Shown piece by piece: positions 3,514 through 43,627 of a DNA stretch of 64,000 nt. Both the position numbers and the translations under genes were made by a program. Position 1 is the stretch's first letter, and every line of letters starts with the position of its first letter. The notes beneath the pieces were generated by a model. The model worked only from the letters and a program-made list of their open reading frames with translations. It was not told the DNA's origin and did not search any database. The DNA comes from an uncultured virus (IMG/VR IMGVR_UViG_3300008108_000202) (lineage: Duplodnaviria > Heunggongvirae > Uroviricota > Caudoviricetes): the IMG/VR virus record IMGVR_UViG_3300008108_000202; one strand, 5' to 3'.

Positions 3514-3563
3514 ATAACAAATGATAAACAACATTAAAACGATTGTTGATCATCGGACGTTAT
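3514..3563 (+). repeat. attC-like site A (short type)
   Basis: ataac-aa-atgataaacaa-loop-ttgttgatcat-cggac-gttat. Confidence 0.8.
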
Positions 3564-3571
3564 ATTCAATA

Positions 3572-3859
3572 TTAATTTTTTAACTTATGTTCAAAGTATA
3601 ATTCTCTGTACATCTTATGTTGTTTTCCGTAAAAATCAGCTAAGAAAAAATTCCAATTATCATCACCATTTTTACCTATTAACATAGCATGTATATTTTG
3701 TAGTTTCATATACATCATCGCAACTTTCCCATAATTGTCAGGATTATTTTTTAACTTATTAATATCATCCAATTGTTTTTCTAATTCAGTTTTAGGTATA
3801 ATCAACCTCATAAACTTTAAAAAATAATCCTTAATTTTTTCTTTTGTTTTCATAATCAT
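3572..3859 (-). CDS. cassette-borne hypothetical protein
   Basis: 95 aa ORF filling the A-B interval. Confidence 0.8.
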   Translation of the reverse strand: MIMKTKEKIKDYFLKFMRLIIPKTELEKQLDDINKLKNNPDNYGKVAMMYMKLQNIHAMLIGKNGDDNWNFFLADFYGKQHKMYRELYFEHKLKN

Positions 3860-3881
3860 AATCCAAAAATTAATACTAAAT

Positions 3882-3962
3882 ATAACAACAAATATAAGAA
3901 ATAAATCTTACTTTGTCTAATTTTTAATGAAAAGATTTACTTCTCATATTTGCAGACGTTAT
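3882..3962 (+). repeat. attC-like site B (long type)
   Basis: Stem caaatataagaaataaatctt / aagatttacttctcatatttg (19 of 21; both mismatches G-T on the minus strand) between ataac and gttat. Confidence 0.8.
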
Positions 3963-3970
3963 GTGTAATA

Positions 3971-4168
3971 TTATTTTTGTTTTGAGTTATCAGTTAAATA
4001 GTTTAATATTTTTTTGATTTTAACTATTTGTCTTCTCCAATTTAATTTTTGTTCATAACAATATATTGAACTAAAATAAATTAATATGGATAAATTTAAA
4101 TTATTATCTTCATTATTTAATTGAAACCCCATTCGTTCTTGGAACTCTTCAAAACTTTCTTTTTTCAT
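3971..4168 (-). CDS. cassette-borne hypothetical protein
   Basis: 65 aa ORF ending SKQK, filling the B-C interval. Confidence 0.75.
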   Translation of the reverse strand: MKKESFEEFQERMGFQLNNEDNNLNLSILIYFSSIYCYEQKLNWRRQIVKIKKILNYLTDNSKQK

Positions 4169-4210
4169 ATACTTAATTTTTTAATCGGTAAAACAAAAAT
4201 AATACAACTT

Positions 4211-4260
4211 ATAACAAATGATAAACAACATTAAAAAGATTGTTGATCATCGGACGTTAT
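4211..4260 (+). repeat. attC-like site C (short type)
   Basis: Near-identical to site A. Confidence 0.8.
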
Positions 4261-4330
4261 ATGTAAGTGTTCCGTTCATCGTTCTAATCAACTCGTTGAA
4301 AATTTTAAAAGAAAAATCCCACTCACTTTT

Positions 4331-4843
4331 TTAGACGACTCTTATTTCAATTTTACCTCTACCATCTATGTAGTAATCATATATATCTTCATCACTTTTA
4401 TATATATCATCCAACCATTGTGAAACATCAAGTTTTTCTCCACCATATTTAGTTATCAATTTGTCAAGAACCTTTGTAGCATATTTACTTCTTTTCTGAG
4501 ATATTTCTTTACTGAATAATTGACTAACAAAACCTTTCATACCAATATCTTTTGAAGTTTTATATAATGTTTCATATATAGAAAATCCAATTCCTTTCCC
4601 AATATAATCATTATACAATTCTATATTATCAATAACTAACCAATTTTCCTCTATATAAAATCTTAATGTTCCGATTTTTTTATTATTCATATATAAATCT
4701 AAATTATCGGAGTAAGTTTCTATAAATGATATATTTATTTTTTTGAAGTTATTTTTCAATTGTTCATTAAAACTAATGTTCTCAATATTTTCATTCAAAA
4801 ACTCTCGTATCGTGGTTTTAATAAAATTTCTCAAATCTTTCAT
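4331..4843 (-). CDS. cassette-borne GNAT-like acetyltransferase
   Basis: IDNIEL...YIGKGIGFSIY acetyl-CoA loop; phage-type N-terminus IKTTIREFLNE. Confidence 0.65.
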   Translation of the reverse strand: MKDLRNFIKTTIREFLNENIENISFNEQLKNNFKKINISFIETYSDNLDLYMNNKKIGTLRFYIEENWLVIDNIELYNDYIGKGIGFSIYETLYKTSKDIGMKGFVSQLFSKEISQKRSKYATKVLDKLITKYGGEKLDVSQWLDDIYKSDEDIYDYYIDGRGKIEIRVV

Positions 4844-4958
4844 TTGTTTTTCTTTATATATAAATATTCAGAATTAAATCTTCCACCCATCTTTTTCTTT
4901 TAAAATTTTTGTTCAGTTCTCCGATTAAACATTCTACCTTAATTAACCACACCTACAC

Positions 4959-5050
4959 ATAACAAGGTGTATAAGAAAGTTTGCCATAAAGTTTAAGTGG
5001 TAATTTTGAAAGTTCATCTAAGCAAACCTTCTCATACACCCAACCGTTAT
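4959..5050 (+). repeat. attC-like site D (long type)
   Basis: Stem ggtgtataagaaagtttgc / gcaaaccttctcatacacc between ataac and caacc-gttat. Confidence 0.8.
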
Positions 5051-5058
5051 ATGAAATG

Positions 5059-5214
5059 TTATTTTTGTTTTGAGTATATTTCACTTGTTTTATTCACAGC
5101 ATCTTGCACACTCTCCATCCAAGTTTTAAGTATTGGTCTAAAATTGAAAATAGACATTTCAGCATCCCAAATAACTTTTGGTATTTCAATTTTAATGATC
5201 TTTCGGTCTTTCAT
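5059..5214 (-). CDS. cassette-borne small protein (51 aa, not in ORF track)
   Basis: Hand translation MKDRKIIKIEIPKVIWDAEM...EIYSKQK fills the D-E interval. Confidence 0.7.
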   Translation of the reverse strand: MKDRKIIKIEIPKVIWDAEMSIFNFRPILKTWMESVQDAVNKTSEIYSKQK

Positions 5215-5258
5215 AATTTATATTTTTTTAATAGGTAAAACAAAAACAACACATTCAT

Positions 5259-5308
5259 ATAACAAATGATAAACAACATTAAAACGATTGTTGATCATCG
5301 GACGTTAT
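5259..5308 (+). repeat. attC-like site E (short type)
   Basis: Identical core to site A, including downstream gttatattcaat. Confidence 0.8.
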
Positions 5309-16394: not shown

Positions 16395-16907
16395 TCAATG
16401 GGAGTCACCAACGTTATGTTTTTCACTGAAAATACTGTAATCAGGATTTATTATTTTTGCAACTTTACTACGTTCACCAGTTACAGATTTCACAACAACA
16501 CCTTCATGTGGAACTTTAGTCCCTTCTATAAAGTTGTTGAATACGTGTTTATCTTGTTCTTCTTTGTTCCAAGTTCCTTTATATAATACCTCAACACTTG
16601 GGAGTCCCAAACAATCAAAATGAACGGTTTCTTCAAGATGGGGTTGGTAAACACCATCAACCTCAACATCAAATCCGACAAATTTTATTTCATCCAAACC
16701 ATATTCATAGTTTTTCTGTATTCCCTTACCGTATATTTCACCATAGATTATGAAACCTTGTTCTAAATCTTCAGGATTGTAAGTATCTTTAATATGTTGC
16801 CACATTTTTTCTTTTATGTCATATTTTTCATTTACTTCAGACCACACGTCTGTTGGATAACAGTGTGTTTGTTTTTTCTTAAAAATTTTACTAAATAACC
16901 TTTTCAT
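16395..16907 (-). CDS. RNA ligase (DRB0094-like), C-terminal half
   Basis: IYGEIYG.GIQKNY, GFDV, HEGVVVK and KIINPDY nucleotidyltransferase motifs. Confidence 0.85.
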   Translation of the reverse strand: MKRLFSKIFKKKQTHCYPTDVWSEVNEKYDIKEKMWQHIKDTYNPEDLEQGFIIYGEIYGKGIQKNYEYGLDEIKFVGFDVEVDGVYQPHLEETVHFDCLGLPSVEVLYKGTWNKEEQDKHVFNNFIEGTKVPHEGVVVKSVTGERSKVAKIINPDYSIFSEKHNVGDSH

Positions 16908-16934
16908 ACTTTTTTTATCCAAAGATAATTAAAT

Positions 16935-17603
16935 TCATACATATTTCCAAATAAACCCACCTGCAGATTTTACTTTATTTTTACAACTGGCGTTGATATT
17001 TGCCTGGTCAATATTAAGTACCCTTGATGCTTCAGCACCTGATTCCCATCTTTTTATAAAATTACCATCTTTAGTAAATTGATTTATTGGTTTTGTGTTT
17101 TTTCTATTCATTTCTGAAAGGTCTGGTCTTTTTATACCTTTGTTACCGTTAGGTTTTCCTTTATTCCAAGGTTCCTTTCCTTTGGCAAATAAATTAGGTA
17201 TTCCTTTGTTCCAAGGAATACGACCTTTCAATGGGCTTATTCGTCCTTTTAGTGATTCAGAATTGGCTTTGTTTTTTTCTTCTTTTAATCTTTCGTATGT
17301 TCTTGATCTGACTTTATAGTCTCTATTTTGACTACCACTTTTCCCAAATAACATAAACCACGTTGCGTGTTTTAATTTAAAATTTTTTGGGTATATTTCT
17401 AAAAGTAATAAATGAGCGATAAAATGCTCTCTAGGAGTTAATAAAACAATATTGGGGTGTGTTCTCCATTGGTGACATTCTCCTTCACCACCTAAACACT
17501 TGGGTATTATGTGGTGAGCTTCGTATGATGTACCTTGTTTTTTCTTTCTATTTTCATTTTTTGCACGAAAGACTAATTGGTTGTATATTTTTTCATAATC
17601 CAT
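16935..17603 (-). CDS. HNH homing endonuclease with NUMOD-type DNA-binding repeats
   Basis: EAHHIIPKCLGG...LTPREHFIAH; PWNKG repeats; C-terminal KSAGGFIWKY. Confidence 0.88.
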   Translation of the reverse strand: MDYEKIYNQLVFRAKNENRKKKQGTSYEAHHIIPKCLGGEGECHQWRTHPNIVLLTPREHFIAHLLLLEIYPKNFKLKHATWFMLFGKSGSQNRDYKVRSRTYERLKEEKNKANSESLKGRISPLKGRIPWNKGIPNLFAKGKEPWNKGKPNGNKGIKRPDLSEMNRKNTKPINQFTKDGNFIKRWESGAEASRVLNIDQANINASCKNKVKSAGGFIWKYV

Positions 17604-17708
17604 AAAAAAGAAATCCCTAAAGAAACTAAAAAGGTACGAGCTTTTTAACTCAATAGGGTTTCTAATAAATTTATTTAAGTTCTCGTACAACCTATAATAT
17701 TATAAATA

Positions 17709-18389
17709 TCATAATGATTGTATATCTTTTAAAACATTATGACTTCCTATATGAAATTCATATTCACACCACTTCCATTTATCACCACCGATACCAAAAT
17801 TGGTGTTTAAGAATATTTTCATCTTTTCAATAAAAGATATTTTTTGTTTCCTTAAAATAGCATAACGGGCATTAGTTCCGTGTATCTTACGAGTGATAAC
17901 TACCTCATCTTCCTCGTTAAACATATCAGGGACATTTTTCATATTTGGGAACTTGTAATAGATGTGAAAATTGGGGTTTTCATTTCTTTTTACTTTACGT
18001 CCATTTCCACCCAAAGTTACCATTTTAACTGGTGGTTCGTATTTGAATATCTCCAATAGTTCCATAACATCAGAACCTTCGTAACGATACTTTTCAGGTA
18101 TGAAACTTATTGGTAAGATCAAACATTCAGAGTAAATTCCACGAAGTTTCACGGTTCTTACTCTTTGTCCTTTACGAAGATATCCAGTAACACCCATACG
18201 ATCAGATATCTCTTTGGGTATTACCGCATCAGTTGTTGTAACGATTACAAGATCACCTTCTTTGTATTCACCCTTTTTGGTTATTGCCATCCAACCATTA
18301 ACACTTACTAATTCTATATTATCAGCACCAGGTATTTGAGTTGGTACTCCAACTTTACCTATATATGCAACACTATTTTGATTTTCCAT
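17709..18389 (-). CDS. RNA ligase (DRB0094-like), N-terminal half
   Basis: IPGADNIE, RVRTVKLRGIYSE and motif I RKIHGTN. Confidence 0.85.
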   Translation of the reverse strand: MENQNSVAYIGKVGVPTQIPGADNIELVSVNGWMAITKKGEYKEGDLVIVTTTDAVIPKEISDRMGVTGYLRKGQRVRTVKLRGIYSECLILPISFIPEKYRYEGSDVMELLEIFKYEPPVKMVTLGGNGRKVKRNENPNFHIYYKFPNMKNVPDMFNEEDEVVITRKIHGTNARYAILRKQKISFIEKMKIFLNTNFGIGGDKWKWCEYEFHIGSHNVLKDIQSL

Positions 18390-18891: not shown

Positions 18892-20040
18892 ACTTATTTA
18901 ATTTTTTCAATTCATTAAGAAAATCAAGTAATTGACCCGTCATAAACGCATCAAAGTCTTCTTGATTTTCCCTTGGAAATGCCGATAAAAAGGTCTTTTC
19001 AAAAGGATCCATAGGATAAAAATAAAATCCTTTTTTTATCTTCTTCTTTTTCTTTCTTGGTATTCTAAATTTTTTCATGTTATTTATCATAAACTTTTAA
19101 ACCATATTCTCCCGACTCTGACTCCCATCCACATTCCGGATCCATATTGGTACAGAAGTAGAACTCATAGTCTCCATTATCATCGGTGGCTATATCATAT
19201 GATCCACAGTTAGGGCATGGTATAGCATCATCTTCCATTTGTTTTGTAATGTCATAAATAAAATCCATGAATTTATCACCCGTATTATGTTTCATATTAT
19301 TCTGATTTTCCATTTTATATTATTGTTTCTTTAACTATCACACCATCAATAAATCTTGACACAACAAAAGATTCAACAGATTCTTCTGAAGTTTGTAGTA
19401 ATGTAATTTCTTGTTGTAGGGCATCAAAGTCTTCTTGGGTAATTAATGTTCCTGACATAGATCCACCACCATTAATCATCTTTATCTTATAAGAACCATA
19501 TGGTTCTGTGTGGTGTTTTTCAACAATAATCAAATTATCATATTCAAAACCCTTTGATTCGTCCAATTTAACTAATTTACCATCATCATTTCTTTTATAA
19601 AACGCACTTCTGTGATAACCACAATCAGGACAAGATGAAAATAACTCACCTGTTTTGTAATAGAAATCCTCAAAACAACTTTCAGATTTACATCTTGGAC
19701 ATTCAACATAACTAATAACGCTTCCCATAATTTATTTTTTTGTATATTTTCTAATTAAATTAAATATTTCTTTGATGTCTGTAAACTCTGATGGTGGTGA
19801 GTCATTTCTTCCTGGTAAAAACATCACTGTAAATCCGTGATTTGCTTGGAAGGTTTCGGTAACTCGTTTACCGCAGATCTCATTAAGATAAATCCAAGGA
19901 AAGTTTCCTGATAGTTTTACATCAATTCCTATTTTTTTAAGCCTTTCAATAAACACACCAAGTTTATCAGTACTTATTTTTGTGCTGTTTTTTGTTTCCA
20001 TTGTATATGTTCCAAATTTAGTTTTTACTTCTCCCTTCAT
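18872..20040 (-). other. four hypothetical ORFs (18872-19090, 19080-19313, 19315-19728, 19732-20040); two have CxxC zinc ribbons
   Basis: CPNC...FC and CPRC...CPDC motifs. Confidence 0.7.
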
Positions 20041-20488
20041 GATTTAATTACTTGGTCTCTAAAATAAACATCACTAATTACCATTCCGTCAATATTCTTA
20101 CCATTGCCAAGATGAATATAATTACCTTCAATTTTGGTAATCATACCATAATCTTCCACCAATCCTGTAATCCTATTAACCACCTTAACATAGTCACCTA
20201 CTTTGATGTCCCTTCCGTTTTCTGAGGTTTAATATTACTTCAAATTTTGATTACAAATTTCGTAATAATTCGTCTTTTTCATCTTTAAATCCTTGTTTTA
20301 TAAGGGTTTTTGAATAGGTGTTGATATATTATAGTTAGGTTCAATCATTAATTTGTTTTGAGTTTATTTCTTTTTTCATATTATACATTGCAAAACCACA
20401 CCAAATTAATTGTAGTGTTAAATAAATAATTATTCCTGTTTTCATATTCTTATTTTTTACAAAGGTAAAACAAATTAATGACAAAACC

Positions 20489-20537
20489 TAACAAATGATA
20501 AACAACATTAAAACGATTGTTTATCATCGGACGTTAT
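20489..20537 (+). repeat. attC-like site F (short type)
   Basis: Perfect 11-bp stem atgataaacaa / ttgtttatcat. Confidence 0.8.
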
Positions 20538-20740
20538 CGGCAATTCCTTTGTCGTTCCAATAGCCATTGTACTCCTTCTTCAAACCCATTTGCGTAATCA
20601 TCCATCCTTTGAACTGGTTCATCTCTGAATTTGTATGAAGCGTCAAATGATGCCTGTTCAATTTCCTTTTGCGATGGAACTGCCGATAACACCGTATTTG
20701 TGCTATTGGCGGTTTCGTTTTTCAAATTATCTTTTTCCAT
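20534..20740 (-). CDS. cassette protein starting inside the loop of site G
   Basis: 68 aa; stop TAA is formed by the GTTA core of site F. Confidence 0.75.
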   Translation of the reverse strand: MEKDNLKNETANSTNTVLSAVPSQKEIEQASFDASYKFRDEPVQRMDDYANGFEEGVQWLLERQRNCR

Positions 20741-20811
20741 ATTTTCAAGTTTGGTTTTTCAAATTAAGTTCTGTGGTTAAATCGCCAACAGACACAAATA
20801 CTTTTTCGTTA
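20686..20811 (+). repeat. attC-like site G (long type)
   Basis: gtatttgtg-ctattggcggttt / aaatcgccaacagacacaaatac with one extrahelical base. Confidence 0.8.
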
Positions 20812-21114
20812 GCAGAAATGTTTCTCCCCACAATTGTTACAGTACAGATACCTTACCGTTATTAGGTTATTTGAGGTATTTGGCTCGTCCGAACCATCAT
20901 CGTATTCTAATTCACTTACTATTTCTGTATCTGTACTTTCACAATCCTTACAAACACATCTGCTAACATCATGTATAAGCAATTCATTATCGCTTAAATC
21001 AATCTTGTAATTTTTCAAGTAAACGTCAACAACTCCTGTTGCATTTGCTTCATTTTCAAGCGACATCCAATTATTCACTCGAAGAAATTCTATTAGTTCC
21101 GTTCTTAAATCCAT
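20809..21114 (-). CDS. cassette protein starting inside the loop of site H; zinc-finger C-terminus
   Basis: 101 aa, CKDC...CNNC; stop lies in the GTTA core of site G. Confidence 0.75.
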   Translation of the reverse strand: MDLRTELIEFLRVNNWMSLENEANATGVVDVYLKNYKIDLSDNELLIHDVSRCVCKDCESTDTEIVSELEYDDGSDEPNTSNNLITVRYLYCNNCGEKHFC

Positions 21115-21155
21115 TGTAAAATAATATTAAACTGCTTATACATGAGTAACGTTAT
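20964..21155 (+). repeat. attC-like site H (coding loop of about 145 nt)
   Basis: Perfect 13-bp stem tcatgtataagca / tgcttatacatga. Confidence 0.75.
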
Positions 21156-21264
21156 AAACAATAAATTAAAATTTGTTCCACCCTAATCTTTCAACCCAAT
21201 CAGAAAAAGATTTTTCTTTCCCCTTATCAATAGGTTTATCTTCTCTCAAATGTTTTGGTATGTT

Positions 21265-21352
21265 ATAACAAGGTATATGTGAAATACCTCATAAAGTTTC
21301 TACTAAATTTAAATTTCTGTGGTAAGGTACTTCACATATACCCAACCGTTAT
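21265..21352 (+). repeat. attC-like site I (long type, related to D)
   Basis: ggtatatgtgaaatacct / aggtacttcacatatacc; caacc-gttat end as in D. Confidence 0.8.
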
Positions 21353-21359
21353 ACACAAT

Positions 21360-21617
21360 TTAATCTACAACGTGAATTTTCTCCTCAATTTTAACTATAC
21401 TTCTTTTATCGTGTTTTATGATTTCCATAGCATCATTATAACCATCATTAGGTAATCCACCTTTATTTAGCGTTATCCACCCATCAACTTCATCAAACAC
21501 TACCTGTTTTTTATCTAAAACACTTCTACGTTGTTCCAACACTCTACCTAAAAATTGAGGATAAAATTCACTCCTACCATCTTCAAACTTTTCTTCTTTA
21601 ATTCTATATTTTTTCAT
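21360..21617 (-). CDS. cassette-borne hypothetical protein
   Basis: 85 aa ORF filling the I-J interval. Confidence 0.8.
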   Translation of the reverse strand: MKKYRIKEEKFEDGRSEFYPQFLGRVLEQRRSVLDKKQVVFDEVDGWITLNKGGLPNDGYNDAMEIIKHDKRSIVKIEEKIHVVD

Positions 21618-21656
21618 TTTATTAAATTTTAGTTGTTAATTCCGATTAAACTGTGT

Positions 21657-21704
21657 ATAACAAATGATAAACAACATTAAAACGATTGTTTATCATAGGA
21701 CGTT
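21657..21704 (+). repeat. attC-like site J (short type)
   Basis: Near-identical to F; ends gacgtt. Confidence 0.75.
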
Positions 21705-21871
21705 TTACTTCCATAACATTCAAGTTTCTTATCCGTTACATTCCACAAATCTTTTTTTCCTTCCGTCATATGACAATTGTGTTTCTTTCCGGTTCTTTTT
21801 CCGAACTCCACAATCATATCATTATGACGATTACGGATGAGGTGAGGGCACTCTTTACAGGGTTTTTTCAT
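21677..21871 (-). CDS. small Cys-rich protein whose 3' end runs into site J
   Basis: MKKPCKECPH...HNCHM...C. Confidence 0.7.
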   Translation of the reverse strand: MKKPCKECPHLIRNRHNDMIVEFGKRTGKKHNCHMTEGKKDLWNVTDKKLECYGSKTSYDKQSF

Positions 21872-22088
21872 TTTCGTACTTTTTGGAAATTTCATCAACT
21901 CTTTTGATAATTGATGTTTTGGATCTATAATCCTGACAGAATATAGTTTTACCATCAAAGGTAATGGTCATAAAGACATTAAATCTGTCTTGACTTACAT
22001 TACGTAGTTTGATTGATAAATTACCATAGGTGAAGTACATAGTCCCTTCACTTTTAAGTTGTTTGTAATTAAAGTTGAACTTTTCCAT
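21855..22088 (-). CDS. hypothetical protein
   Basis: MEKFNF start just downstream of a TATCTTTG box (22093-22100). Confidence 0.7.
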   Translation of the reverse strand: MEKFNFNYKQLKSEGTMYFTYGNLSIKLRNVSQDRFNVFMTITFDGKTIFCQDYRSKTSIIKRVDEISKKYENEKTL

Positions 22089-22123
22089 ATCACAAAGATA
22101 TGAAAATATTTTTAACTCACAAA

Positions 22124-23368
22124 TTATTTTTTGAAATTGTACGTGTTTTCTATTGGTCTTTTTCCGTATTTTTTTTCCATCATTTTTTGATGTAGATCCC
22201 AATCCAATATTGACTCATTGGTTTGCGTTTTATCTTCTTCAGGTAGAAGGGAATATACTTTTGATATTTTTTTCATCACTTTTGTTGCAATATAATTAAA
22301 CTTTTCACACTCATCTTTAAAGAAATCAATTTCTCTACCTTCATATTTAATAACATATCTAATATATTTATCTCTAATTTTTTCTTTCTCTTCTTGATTT
22401 GGTGCTTGTTCCATAAACATTTTAACCAAAGGCCCCATCTGTTGTACCATCATATCATAATGATCAAAGAAATAATTATCAAAAGCCTCCATTTTGGCAT
22501 TTACAATATTAACATAAACAATTATCAATACTTCCTCAATTTTTTTCTCAATGGACATTGTTTTTGGTTTTAACCCAACAAACTTCAATAATTCATCACA
22601 TCTACCCATTTGACTTTTTAAACCAGAAATTAAATGTTCAAATGAGAAGTTTTTTATTTCTTTTAATTCATCATAAACAATATCATTTGTTATGAACTCG
22701 TAAAACTCATCTCTTGTTATACCTTTTTTAATCATTCTTGTTGCAATCTCTGTAGGTCTCACCAAGTTTTCGGCATTTTGAATAAAATAACTATTCCTCA
22801 TAAATTCTTCAATCACCGGAATACCAAAAGACATTCCTTTAGAATAGGCCTGATAATCCGCCGTTCCACCAACAAGTTCTACCTTCTTTTTTAATCTATC
22901 AAATCTATGTTTTAATTCGTGAGCCATTACTGATATGGTATTAACCTCATCCCTAACGAATCTATCGTATAGATCCTTTGGTTCCCACTCACTTGATGTA
23001 ACAAAATTCACATTTAATTCTATCTCACTAGATGTTTCATTAATCTGCATTAAAATACCTCTATCAAATTTAAATGCGTATGAAACTCCCATTGATGCAA
23101 TCTCCACTTTTCCTTTATACCCAGCAAGTTCTTCGGTATGTACAGAAAGTTTTAAAGTCCTTAAAACTTCATCACCAATTGGTAGATTTACGTTTGTTTT
23201 TAGTTTATATTCGTCTTGTTTTTTATCTATCTTTTTTAGAAATGCCGACACAATACCATATAATTTTTCCGCAGAATCCATAACGAATTCAGGAACCCCA
23301 ACGGCTTCACTAATCAAACTTTTTGATATTAGATCATATTGTGTTTCTGTTATAATAACTTTTTTCAT
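22124..23368 (-). CDS. hypothetical protein with HExxH motif
   Basis: 414 aa; MAHELKH; MKKVIITETQ N-terminus. Confidence 0.8.
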   Translation of the reverse strand: MKKVIITETQYDLISKSLISEAVGVPEFVMDSAEKLYGIVSAFLKKIDKKQDEYKLKTNVNLPIGDEVLRTLKLSVHTEELAGYKGKVEIASMGVSYAFKFDRGILMQINETSSEIELNVNFVTSSEWEPKDLYDRFVRDEVNTISVMAHELKHRFDRLKKKVELVGGTADYQAYSKGMSFGIPVIEEFMRNSYFIQNAENLVRPTEIATRMIKKGITRDEFYEFITNDIVYDELKEIKNFSFEHLISGLKSQMGRCDELLKFVGLKPKTMSIEKKIEEVLIIVYVNIVNAKMEAFDNYFFDHYDMMVQQMGPLVKMFMEQAPNQEEKEKIRDKYIRYVIKYEGREIDFFKDECEKFNYIATKVMKKISKVYSLLPEEDKTQTNESILDWDLHQKMMEKKYGKRPIENTYNFKK

Positions 23369-23380
23369 ATCAATACTTTA

Positions 23381-23698
23381 TTAACAATCATCAGAAATTT
23401 CATTCCAGAGTTCAACGAAATCGTCATAATAGTCATCAAACATTAACTTTTCAATTTCCTCTCTACCTTCATTTCTTTCTTCATCTGAAAATACATCATC
23501 ATCCCTTTCATAGTCTTCATCACCAAAAAAGAATCTCATACCTTCATTAATACAAAAATGAGCGTATTCGTCACCATCACTAAAATTACAAGGATCCTGA
23601 ATTTGTACTTGGAACTGAATAATATCTCTCAATTCTCCGATTCTCCTAATTCTTTTGAGGAATTTATTTTGTGACTCTGTAATGATATATTTCTTCAT
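23381..23698 (-). CDS. hypothetical protein (ITESQ N-terminus)
   Basis: 105 aa ORF; ATATTTAT upstream. Confidence 0.75.
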   Translation of the reverse strand: MKKYIITESQNKFLKRIRRIGELRDIIQFQVQIQDPCNFSDGDEYAHFCINEGMRFFFGDEDYERDDDVFSDEERNEGREEIEKLMFDDYYDDFVELWNEISDDC

Positions 23699-23724
23699 AC
23701 AAATAAATATATCGGAGTTGCGAT

Positions 23725-24395
23725 TTATCCCACAACTCCGAGTTTACCATCCAAATGATGATCATCCAAGATTTCAGACGCAACCATCCTTTTATCCATT
23801 ATTTTAATGATTTCGTCAATACTATATGGTTTCATACCATTGCCATCAACACCAACATCCATTTTCTTTCCATTCCCAAACTTTCGGTGTTCAGGTAGAT
23901 GAACGTGTCCGTGAAGATGGATAACACCTTTATTCATTCCATTCCAACTTTGGAGTGGATAATGACACATAACAAAAGAATGATCTCCAATTTTAACCTC
24001 CAAATAATGTTGGATACTCAAAAACTTATCTTGGATTCCGCCTCGGTCATTCTCAATGTGATGATCGTGATTACCAAGAATCAAGTGGATGTTTTTACAA
24101 ACCAACCTATCCAAAAATAATCCAATATTATCAAACCCACCAAATGAAACATCACCAAGCATAATTAATGTATCATCTTGTCCAACAACAGAGTTAATGT
24201 TGTTTACAATTGCATCATTCATTTGTTCAATTGTTTGAAAATCCCTTGTTGAGTTCTCCGGAACTTCACCATCATGGGTTCTCCAGTTTGTAACACCACG
24301 CACAATATTTTTGTGACCGAAATGAGTTAAGTATCCGAGGTAATCCACACTCTACCTGTGTTTCCCTCGGATATTATTTTTTTAAATTTTAACAT
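23725..24395 (-). CDS. calcineurin-like metallophosphoesterase interrupted by a 5-nt insert in the DxH motif
   Basis: MLKFKKIISEGNTGRVWITSDT* then HFGHKNI...LGD...GNHD...HGHVH in another frame. Confidence 0.85.
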
Positions 24396-42361: not shown

Positions 42362-42646
42362 TTATCCATTAATCCATTTCTTTATTATTTTAACACCTTC
42401 ATTGATATCCTCAAAATCTCTATCAGGGGCAAACAATTCACTTTTGGGATCTGTTTCAGGTTCTTCTATTAATATGAAAGCTGGCACATATTCATTGTTT
42501 GTTATTTCAACAAACAAATTATATTCTTCCTCATATTCTTCAATATCTCTATCAACGAAATCAATATTTTCTTTTACCAACATTTCTTTCATGTCTTCAC
42601 AAAAAGGACATCCTTTCATTGTGAATAAAACAACAACCTTATCCAT
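42362..42646 (-). CDS. glutaredoxin
   Basis: FTMKGCPFC...YVP. Confidence 0.88.
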   Translation of the reverse strand: MDKVVVLFTMKGCPFCEDMKEMLVKENIDFVDRDIEEYEEEYNLFVEITNNEYVPAFILIEEPETDPKSELFAPDRDFEDINEGVKIIKKWING

Positions 42647-42953
42647 TTATTAATTCTTGAACCAAACCTTTTATTTCATTTTCTTGTAGAACTCCTACTT
42701 TTGTATTTGTTACATTTCCTCCGTTGAATACTTTAATTGTTGGTACGCTCCTAACCCCTAATGCCATTGCAACTTCTCTATTTTGATCAACATCCATTGA
42801 GTACATTTGAACGTCTGTTGTATTTTCCGCAGCAACTCTTTCAAATATTGGTTTCATTGACCGACAGGGTTGACACCAGGACGTTTCTAATTTTAGAATT
42901 ATTTTTTCACCATTTTTAATTTTTTCTAGTAATTTTTCTCCTGTAATTTCCAT
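42639..42953 (-). CDS. trxA: thioredoxin
   Basis: WCQPC and VRSVPT. Confidence 0.88.
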   Translation of the reverse strand: MEITGEKLLEKIKNGEKIILKLETSWCQPCRSMKPIFERVAAENTTDVQMYSMDVDQNREVAMALGVRSVPTIKVFNGGNVTNTKVGVLQENEIKGLVQELING

Positions 42954-42958
42954 AATTT

Positions 42959-43627
42959 TTAATTTACGTTTTTCCAACTTCTACCATTTTTTAATTCATA
43001 GAAAAAACCTTTTCTAATTTGCGGGTAGAGTTCTGTTAATTGTTTAATTTTTATCCCCTCATTTATTTTTTGTTTTATTTCCTTAACTAATTCAACCCCA
43101 TATTTTGAGTTTTTTTGTTTAGTTTCATAAATTTTACTAACTCGTTTTTCTTTTTCTTCTTTTGATATTGATCCCCAACCTTTTTTAACTGATAATCTTC
43201 TTTTTTCTCGTTCTTCGTCCGCCTTGTCCCCATATAACTCTTCATAAGTTTTACCTTTGTGTGAGTTACCATTTTTAGTATTTTCCGAAATTTTTTTCCT
43301 TATTTCAGGCGAATGAACATATCCTAAACACCCTTCACCACCAAATGTAGAATTTAATCCATTTTTATACGTTTTGAATTCGGTAATATAAAATTTTTCT
43401 CTTTCATAAATATTTAATACATTACATTCTTCAATTATTTCTATATTAAAATTTTCAACCCCATATTTTCTAATAGAATTACAAAATTTAGTATTAGAGT
43501 CAGTTTTTAAACATCTGTAAACGTGTTCTTCAAATCTTTTATTTATAGAATTAATCGTACATCCAATATATTCTTTTTTGTTTATTAGATTTGTTATTTT
43601 ATATATGTGTCCTTTTTGTGTGCTCAT
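42959..43627 (-). CDS. GIY-YIG homing endonuclease
   Basis: HIYKITN...YIG...R...E...GLN; NUMOD3-like HSPEIRKKIS. Confidence 0.88.
   Translation of the reverse strand: MSTQKGHIYKITNLINKKEYIGCTINSINKRFEEHVYRCLKTDSNTKFCNSIRKYGVENFNIEIIEECNVLNIYEREKFYITEFKTYKNGLNSTFGGEGCLGYVHSPEIRKKISENTKNGNSHKGKTYEELYGDKADEEREKRRLSVKKGWGSISKEEKEKRVSKIYETKQKNSKYGVELVKEIKQKINEGIKIKQLTELYPQIRKGFFYELKNGRSWKNVN

Follow-up and report, generated by a model that had tools for sequence, protein, structure and literature searches.

ORFs that start in hairpin loops of integron-like sites are likely genes of mobile cassettes in a decayed array of an uncultured phage

Integrons comprise an integrase (IntI), an attachment site (attI), and gene cassettes bounded by attC sites, with the attC sites of sedentary chromosomal integrons being homogeneous, and they are regarded as a cellular device built on one special integrase. 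Xer/dif systems make use of 28-bp duplex sites with an 11-6-11 layout for enzymes of the XerC/XerD type, and they have counterparts in the pdif modules of Acinetobacter plasmids and in archaeal XerA. In phages of the T4 type, promoter-stem-loop (PeSL) elements, reportedly described by Arbiol and colleagues in 2010, are said to act as mobile regulatory cassettes. We here describe a cassette array at positions 20334–21705 of a 64-kb stretch of DNA (64,000 nucleotides, hereafter referred to as the window) from an uncultured virus of the Caudoviricetes (IMG/VR record IMGVR_UViG_3300008108_000202), together with two open reading frames (ORFs) of this array, ORF B and ORF C, each of which starts within the loop of a hairpin site. 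The window has a G+C content of ~30% and is phage-like, with nearly all genes being carried by the minus strand.

On the plus strand, the array forms a regular chain of five cassettes, A to E, each unit of which runs from GTTA to TAAC and has inverted repeats of 14 to 26 nt as its ends. An imperfect hairpin lies between each TAAC and the next GTTA, with a spacer of 1 to 2 nt on the left and 5 to 6 nt on the right. The first-pass annotation of the window had proposed that ORF B starts in the loop of site G, reads through the stem arm and core, and stops on the GTTA of site F, and that ORF C likewise begins within the loop of site H and ends in the core of site G. Both proposals were confirmed, and the corresponding peptides, TANSTNTVLSAV for ORF B and NELLIHDVSRC for ORF C, are present. 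The hairpin of site H was likewise found, with the ATG at 21114 in its loop; the loop length had been estimated at ~145 nt, and the arms are 133 nt apart.

We consider it likely that ORF B and ORF C are each the gene of a mobile cassette and that the array to which both cassettes belong is integron-like and decayed. Each cassette spans the interval between successive G|TTA cores and consists, on the plus strand, of a left arm, a gene body, a right arm, and a hairpin. The left arm comprises GTTA, a 4-nt barcode, and ~7 further nt, and the right arm ends with the complement of the barcode (barcode') and TAAC and is complementary to the left arm. The gene body is predicted to be read on the minus strand, from the hairpin toward the left arm, with its stop codon in the left arm or on the core TAA. 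In about one-third of cassettes, including B and C, the predicted start codon lies in the hairpin loop, and the first 17 to 50 residues, if translation does begin at the loop ATG, would derive from the loop, a single stem arm, the TAAC core, and the right arm.

The ends of individual cassettes are matched to each other. Sites were collected by scanning for TAAC, a short spacer, a 12-nt arm with at least 10 matches, the opposite arm, a spacer, and GTT. The 4-nt barcode next to the core was complementary at all four positions between the two ends of the same cassette in 271 of 417 non-identical cassettes, compared with 16 of 412 comparisons made across a hairpin and 22 of 417 in random pairing, and 84 different kinds of barcode were present. 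The left arm carries A and the complement of the right arm carries G at position 7 beyond GTTA, with the result that this position is complementary in only 11% of cases (loci L001–L216), whereas the other positions of the cassette arms are 64–82% paired. This conserved mismatch may serve as a mark of strand or orientation.

Cassette C provides an example of change at both ends. The sole full-length DNA relative of ORF C, at locus L132, has 91% protein identity and shares positions 20804–21162 with the window at 93%, the flanks being unrelated; this block corresponds to cassette C and hairpin H, followed by the initial 12 nt of the unit beyond. The two arms both differ in the L132 copy, in which GTTA-GCA is replaced by GTTA-TAG and TGC-TAAC by CTA-TAAC, a compensatory triple change that also alters the predicted protein (VSR to VIG, and the COOH-terminal C to L). 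The pairing that corresponds to SRC and HFC is retained in a third homologue.

The terminal inverted repeats present on every unit (14 to 26 nt) would also be expected if each GTTA...TAAC unit were a miniature transposon that inserts into hairpin targets. Genes nevertheless cross the TAAC end into the hairpin, and cassette C travels together with hairpin H; moreover, neither target-site duplications nor, within the window, a transposase was found. We therefore regard a miniature transposon as extremely improbable.

A search with Pfam detected a tyrosine recombinase (PF00589) in three of five large records, at 0.6 to 3 kb from conserved hairpins and, in all three records, on the same side of and in the same orientation relative to these hairpins. 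The recombinase is Xer-like and comprises 266 to 268 amino acids. Its best NCBIfam model was archaeal XerA (196.7 bits, compared with a cut-off of 220), and it fell below the cut-offs of all NCBIfam models, including those for XerA, XerC, and XerD. The integron-integrase model TIGR02249 reached 163.7 bits (cut-off of 265), and its match was split into two stretches. The closest solved structures were XerC-like 4a8e (E value of 5.9e-39) followed by XerA 5hxy. In comparison with IntI4 (2a3v), residues 18–178 and 214–262 of the recombinase correspond to residues 17–181 and 265–313, respectively.

Relatives of this recombinase numbered 151 in viral contigs, and 80 loci were kept for analysis. Upstream of the recombinase gene and on the opposite strand, 337 sites were found (309 kb searched), whereas the other configurations at the same 80 loci yielded 35 sites upstream on the same strand as well as 15 and 13 sites downstream (412 kb searched); these four counts are not de-duplicated. 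The longest arrays contained 14 sites. Of 64 distinct regions that precede intact recombinase genes, 57 contained an attI-like motif, [AT]TATA-N2-7-GTTA, with its GTTA being located 51 to 67 nt upstream of the recombinase start (mostly 51–52 or 63–67 nt) and marking the start of the first cassette. Arrays of two to five sites were also found upstream of the closest cellular relatives of the recombinase, at 6 of 11 loci with an identity of at least 48%, two of the 11 having almost no upstream DNA. The six loci belong to five Bacteroidota assemblies, including a Flavobacterium isolate, and to one assembly labelled Bacillota. At an identity of no more than 44%, 13 loci were scanned, and none showed at least two sites in the upstream position.

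The Xer-like recombinase, which in related phages is encoded just beyond the attI-like GTTA, would presumably excise and insert cassettes at the GTTA cores. In an excised circle, the matched arms would extend the hairpin, and the cassette would then reenter either at the attI-like site or at the site of a different cassette, with a folded single strand as the putative substrate. Integrons recombine the folded bottom strand of attC; for the present sites, the pairing that persists while sequence varies, the unequal spacers, and the conserved mismatch are no more than indirect hints of such a substrate.

Breakpoints between related sequences fall at the cores. Joints were identified in metagenome contigs of three DNA runs; across the four runs compared, window positions 20556–20723, the body of cassette B, are uncovered, an absence that carries no evidential weight. 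One joint, 20530->21149, corresponds to the precise loss of cassettes B and C and links the unlike hairpins F and H through 7 shared and therefore ambiguous letters; a second, 20537->21704, removes cassettes B to E. Contigs diverge from the window directly after 20537, 21154, and 21156 and directly before 20808, and a contig from an RNA library starts at 20334, the first position of cassette A, behind other preceding letters that end in ..CCAACC. A third joint, 20221->21706, was present in all three DNA runs and has 16 other letters in place of the entire platform, and close relatives without the stump of the recombinase gene, the attI-like site, and the array therefore exist, with the platform being an insertion/deletion polymorphism. 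Among loci that share the same right-hand body, homology starts 1 nt before GTTA in 8 of 16 locus pairs.

The hairpins themselves recur in many contexts. A pattern of the form TAACAA...C[G/A]GAC-GTTA[T/G] with a 33-nt hairpin matched no fewer than 131 stretches in viral contigs, a large number of these contigs being 100 to 465 kb in length. The 33-nt hairpin is invariant in 108 distinct contexts, with left and right flanks reassorting freely. A k-mer test of whether hairpins travel with the left or the right flank did not discriminate between the two, given that for most hairpin families neither flank is related from one occurrence to another. The hairpin of cassette D is present at more than 20 other loci with differing flanks. 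Sites fall into length classes of 48, 80–89, and 120–129 nt, of which the last is common (188 sites, not de-duplicated), and the long class to which site H (191 nt) belongs is rare. Site families differ widely in arm sequence yet remain complementary over at least 20 nt. TAAC/GTTA cores, arms, unequal spacers, and length classes are compatible with the structural layout of attC sites, which are imperfect palindromes of variable length with R''(..AAC), L'', L', and R'(GTT..) boxes, but the RYYYAAC/GTTRRRY consensus is not kept beyond TAAC/GTTA.

We also observed "empty cassettes" of the form GTTA-barcode-CATTAAAACGA-barcode'-TAAC, with ~25 nt between the cores, at five loci (L162, L164, L014, L020, and L047). 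Their central letters are those of the loop of the invariant 33-nt hairpin, which hints at a kinship between this hairpin and minimal cassettes.

Invariance of one 33-nt hairpin in more than 100 contexts, together with the location of hairpins between codirectional genes and just upstream of starts, might suggest that hairpins are mainly regulatory, as terminators or promoters, in the manner of the promoter-stem-loop cassettes of T4-type phages, and that their shuffling is a by-product of homologous recombination. Such an explanation leaves unaccounted for the matched barcodes at the ends of the same cassette and the compensatory change at L132, as well as the fixed position and orientation relative to the recombinase and attI-like GTTA and the joints between unlike hairpins. 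We consider a mainly regulatory function very unlikely, with an additional regulatory role of the hairpins being possible.

With the longest ATG-initiated ORF of at least 30 amino acids taken for each of the 417 cassettes, the ORF was antisense in 361 cassettes, sense in 27, and absent in 29. Of these 361 antisense ORFs, 129 start inside a site and 268 stop no more than 26 nt from the G of the left-hand GTTA core; the number that stop exactly on the core TAA, 68, is below the one-in-three frame expectation and so is not above chance. Among 524 array sites, the TAAC core falls within a minus-strand ORF in 209 cases and the GTT core does so in 82, compared with a plus-strand background of 54 to 56. 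The proposal that cassettes are GTT-to-GTT units of plus orientation with antisense genes is thus upheld by both sets of counts.

ORFs that start in a site (n = 179) use the three frames in 116, 44, and 19 cases, with the 116 reading the core as GTT (Val). The 178 distinct products of such ORFs were grouped into 107 leader clusters and 167 body clusters. Shared leaders comprise 22 to 28 amino acids; one leader of 22 amino acids precedes 13 unrelated bodies, and others precede 10 and 6, with those bodies listed behind shared leaders mostly having no early Met of their own. The patterns ..L[NR]I[SH]DV.. and ..N.AN.[LV]L.A[VG] recur in unrelated cassette ORFs. The leader region of ORF B, 20678–20767, is 78% identical to a site in locus L062.

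These results bear on a further claim of the first-pass annotation, that the recombination site doubles as coding sequence. The association of arrays with the Xer-like recombinase, the breaks at GTTA cores, and the protein-altering change in L132 support such a dual role, with the coding function being a predicted one. Both peptides, for which the annotation gave L.IHDVS-like and NTVL.AV-like motifs, recur in many unrelated cassette ORFs, and a homologue of ORF C was found to carry the peptide together with its inverted-repeat partner rather than without it. The part of the leader that is encoded by the loop is also conserved, even though the loop needs no pairing, so that the peptides may be either imprints of a DNA site, as was also suggested, or protein motifs. 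For annotation, recurring NH2-terminal peptides in these phage proteins should not count as evidence of homology.

A more speculative possibility, which we put forward tentatively and regard as unlikely, is that the site is an expression-and-tagging module that provides start signals and a common leader of 20 to 30 amino acids joined in frame through GTT (Val). If this were the case, captured coding fragments would be expressed as leader fusions, a form of exon shuffling at the DNA level by a phage recombinase, and the leader might act as a tag for sorting or regulation, such as for packaging into the virion or timed degradation.

The predicted leaders might alternatively be open frames left by conserved site sequence, with the loop ATGs being unused and the ORFs being shorter or not genes at all. 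Such an explanation is consistent with the orphan status of ORF B and with an indication of expression that is limited to one contig of an RNA library, and frame use of 116, 44, and 19 can follow from stop codons that are fixed in the site sequence. However, the next Met of ORF B is not encountered before residue 46 of 68, and the sole further Met of ORF C, at residue 17, is also encoded in the loop; an early Met is likewise missing from most of the bodies listed behind shared leaders, as noted above. Unit-filling antisense ORFs in 361 of 417 cassettes, compared with 27 in the sense direction, also argue against this explanation, as does the comparison of ORF C with L132, in which, with barcodes left out, residue differences (6) are fewer than nucleotide differences (15). 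We judge it quite unlikely that the loop ATGs are unused.

Several observations weigh against our interpretation of ORFs B and C as genes of mobile cassettes. First, the recombinase lacks the IntI-specific insertion (I2 helix domain), which in IntI-type integrases lies between the conserved patches, with 35 amino acids in place of the 83 in IntI4; this element reportedly conferred single-strand recombination on integron integrases (PMC7790495). Second, among loci with the same left-hand body and a different hairpin, 5 of 12 pairs break right after TAAC. The GTT-to-GTT unit is therefore not the sole unit of exchange, and a hairpin is not always fixed to its own cassette; together with the missing IntI domain, such exchange on the TAAC side indicates that the chemistry may differ from that of integrons. 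Third, z-scores for DNA folding of single sites are modest (–1.6 to –2.8), even though the folds do recover the hairpins; the weight of the evidence rests on arrays in related contigs rather than on single-site folds. Given that the scan selects complementary arms, covariation in an alignment of 90 sites arises partly by construction and is not independent evidence. Fourth, ORF B has no relative in viral contigs, and a search of a large protein collection returned only ORF B itself, whereas ORF C has just three clusters of relatives, so that both are near-orphans; moreover, the rule of selecting the longest ATG-initiated ORF may place some starts too far upstream. Fifth, the RNA-library contig that spans 20808–21122 over ORF C, ending at 21122 where DNA contigs continue, is a single contig from one study with a depth of 4 and may be DNA, and it constitutes at most a weak hint of a transcript. 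Finally, recombination, circle formation, and translation are steps that we infer from sequence and not from direct evidence.

A serious rival to a folded single-stranded substrate is a duplex, Xer-like mode, in which the same elements would be exchanged as double-stranded DNA, either with the R-box/spacer/L-box halves of each hairpin serving as dif-like duplex sites, as in Xer/dif and pdif systems, or by homologous recombination between repeated hairpins, with no folded strand being involved. The Xer-like nature of the recombinase and its lack of the IntI insertion are in line with such a mode, as is the fact that hairpins show breaks on both sides, five at TAAC and eight just before GTTA; the joint 20537->21704 links two identical conserved hairpins and could be the result of homologous recombination. 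Duplex exchange is more difficult to reconcile with the variation of arm sequences between site families that keep complementarity over at least 20 nt, with the unequal spacers (1–2 vs. 5 nt), which would give the two duplex halves differing central regions, or with the conserved mismatch at position 7 in otherwise paired cassette arms (11% complementary). The joint 20530->21149, moreover, links nonhomologous hairpins by way of 7 shared letters. No dif-like 11-6-11 site was seen, and the distance from the core to the TATA-like box is unequal on the two sides. On balance, we consider exchange of duplex DNA to be somewhat improbable.

Coordinates of the cassettes, their sites, and associated features are listed in Table 1. 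To the left of the attI-like motif at the left-hand end of the array lies a short minus-strand remnant of the recombinase gene. A tblastn search with the recombinase of locus L133 matched this stump over the first 15 residues of the query (MKKTDYYEICNQKLK), of which 13 of 15 are identical. No other credible recombinase fragment was detected by tblastn in the remainder of the 64 kb, and no recombinase domain was found among 100 ORFs. The presence of the motif and the 15-codon stump indicates that the window array is a platform from which the recombinase gene has been deleted. At five loci (L157, L155, L001, L025, and L039), a homologue of 21702–21873 lies between a homologue of 19802–20001 and an intact recombinase gene, and the body of the recombinase has therefore been lost from the window through a rearrangement. 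With the recombinase reduced to 15 codons, the array is probably frozen, unless the genome harbors another copy elsewhere. A recombinase gene at another locus (L135 1162–2456, in the 464-kb record G002) is broken after ~174 residues by an ORF of GIY-YIG type on the opposite strand, with the COOH-terminal end being located ~1 kb further on.

Table 1. Features of the cassette array and of a second array in the window.
Feature	Position	Strand	Description
Recombinase stump	20238–20282	–	MKKTNYYEICNQNLK followed by a stop; 15 codons of Xer-like tyrosine recombinase gene
attI-like motif	20324–20337	+	ATATATTATA-GTTA; GTTA at 20334 is the start of the first cassette; 51 nt from the start of the stump
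Cassette A	20334–20532	+	26-nt terminal repeats at 20334–20359 and 20467–20492; hairpin site F; minus-strand ORF 20341–20484
Site F	20489–20536	+	TAAC-AA-(33-nt hairpin, 20495–20527)-CGGAC-GTTA; conserved hairpin, 5 copies in window
Cassette B	20533–20807	+	GTTA to next GTTA; terminal repeats GTTATCGGCAATTCC at 20533–20547 and GGAACTGCCGATAAC at 20676–20690
ORF B	20534–20740	–	68 amino acids, ATG; starts in loop of site G; stop is the TTA of GTTA 20533–20536
Site G	20687–20811	+	125 nt from TAAC to GTTA; gapped arms at ~20694–20717 and ~20779–20803
Cassette C	20808–21150	+	GTTA to next GTTA; terminal repeats GTTAGCAGAAATGTTT at 20808–20823 and AAACACATCTGCTAAC at 20952–20967
ORF C	20809–21114	–	101 amino acids, ATG; CxxC...CxxC; starts in loop of site H; stops on GTTA 20808–20811
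Site H	20964–21154	+	191 nt; arms at 20969–20990 and 21124–21145 (22 nt, 86% complementary, 133 nt apart)
Cassette D	21151–21347	+	Hairpin site 21266–21351 (hairpin 21272–21342); terminal repeat found
Cassette E	21348–21705	+	Terminal repeats at 21348–21365 and 21644–21661; ORF 21360–21617 (minus strand, 85 amino acids); last site
Second array	3515–5307	+	Five sites with four cassettes between them; three sites are the invariant hairpin; 15 kb away

The minimum-energy DNA fold of site G (–16.1 kcal/mol, z-score of –2.3) shows the gapped arms, and that of site H has an energy of –17.4 kcal/mol (z-score of –1.8). Inspection by eye of the loops of both sites yielded no clear match to a Bacteroidota-type promoter motif. 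Cassette D contains no minus-strand ORF of at least 30 amino acids. The last site of the array consists of the conserved 33-nt hairpin (21664–21696) and a degenerate core, GTTT, at 21702; an ORF at 21677–21958 crosses this core and ends within the hairpin. The second array (3515–5307) has neither an attI-like motif nor a recombinase stump, and its outermost arms are without a matching partner.

Scanning of the whole window yielded 13 sites on the plus strand and 1 on the minus strand, compared with an average of 2.9 and no more than 7 in dinucleotide shuffles (n = 40), and 10 of the 13 plus-strand sites are clustered in 3515–5304 and 20489–21702. Counting of terminal inverted repeats for every 4-mer core did not single out GTTA, and Rfam gave no match in the window at gathering thresholds. 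Positions 19000–24000 had a single match in a phage collection, of 89 nt, in LR756500.1; the nearest record, a 33-kb fragment (G001), showed no match to the recombinase or to the array stretch.

Apart from the arrays, an RNA ligase gene appears to be split, with ORF 16398–16922 matching Pfam RNA_ligase and ORF 17712–18389 matching the PHA02142 OB-fold domain. The ORF between them (16938–17690, 251 amino acids) has an HNH-like stretch, HHIIPKCLGG, and no Pfam match, which suggests that it may be a homing-endonuclease gene inserted within the RNA ligase (region 16398–18389). A free-standing ORF for a GIY-YIG endonuclease is present among phage genes at 42962–43627, where it adjoins a thioredoxin gene (42642–42977).

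Among known systems, PeSL cassettes resemble the array in that repeated stem-loops lie between small accessory genes of a large phage and these genes are shuffled among relatives; they differ in that they are not known to have a recombinase, matched cassette ends, or GTT/AAC cores, and their exchange is presumably homologous. The likeness to Xer/dif and pdif systems lies in the closest solved relatives of the recombinase, XerC-like 4a8e and XerA 5hxy, and in modules bounded by inverted recombinase-binding sites, whereas the present sites are long hairpins that vary in sequence with pairing being kept, and the recombinase is dedicated to the adjacent array. A full-text literature search, in which subscription journals were largely outside the scope, yielded no description of the present system. 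Canonical integron parts have been described in 21 phages, with sites detected by IntegronFinder and recombined by the bacterial integrase IntI1, according to the passages available to us of Qi et al. 2023 (PMC9892861). With two arrays and no more than a 15-codon stump, the window conforms to the definition of a cluster of attC sites lacking an integron integrase (CALIN; at least two sites and no integrase nearby), albeit with sites that are not canonical attC, and it resembles in this respect the CALINs of phage genomes portrayed in those passages, which are clusters of attC-type sites without a nearby integrase. The main text of that article never mentions Xer, and the passages available to us contain no Xer-like platform and no leader-encoding sites; a scan of MW202573, its freshwater CALIN phage, found none of the present sites.

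The resemblance to integrons themselves extends to the tyrosine recombinase gene that adjoins an attI-like GTT core, the one-sided array whose sites all face against the direction of the recombinase gene, sites in the form of imperfect palindromes that have AAC...GTT cores and loops of variable length (48 to ~190 nt), the pairing between the initial bases of each cassette and the inverse core of that cassette, the G|TT breakpoints, and a content of mostly single, small orphan genes. If our interpretation is correct, the array would offer a second case in which cassette capture can be tested, with a bearing on the origin of integron integrases, and it would explain how small accessory genes of phages might turn over rapidly, with leader peptides and GTTA/TAAC barcodes being a practical handle for finding such genes. 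The same cassette logic is here associated with a plain Xer-like recombinase, in hundreds of large phage contigs and several Bacteroidota assemblies, and the sites are predicted also to encode the first residues of cassette proteins. Unlike integrons, the present system has a recombinase of 266 amino acids without the IntI-specific domain; its genes are antisense to the integron convention, in which they are promoterless, in the sense direction, and read from Pc beside intI, and are codirectional with the recombinase; its paired cassette ends are ~15 nt in length and contain a conserved mismatch; and its sites, which are carried by large phages, are predicted to supply start codons and shared NH2-terminal leaders.

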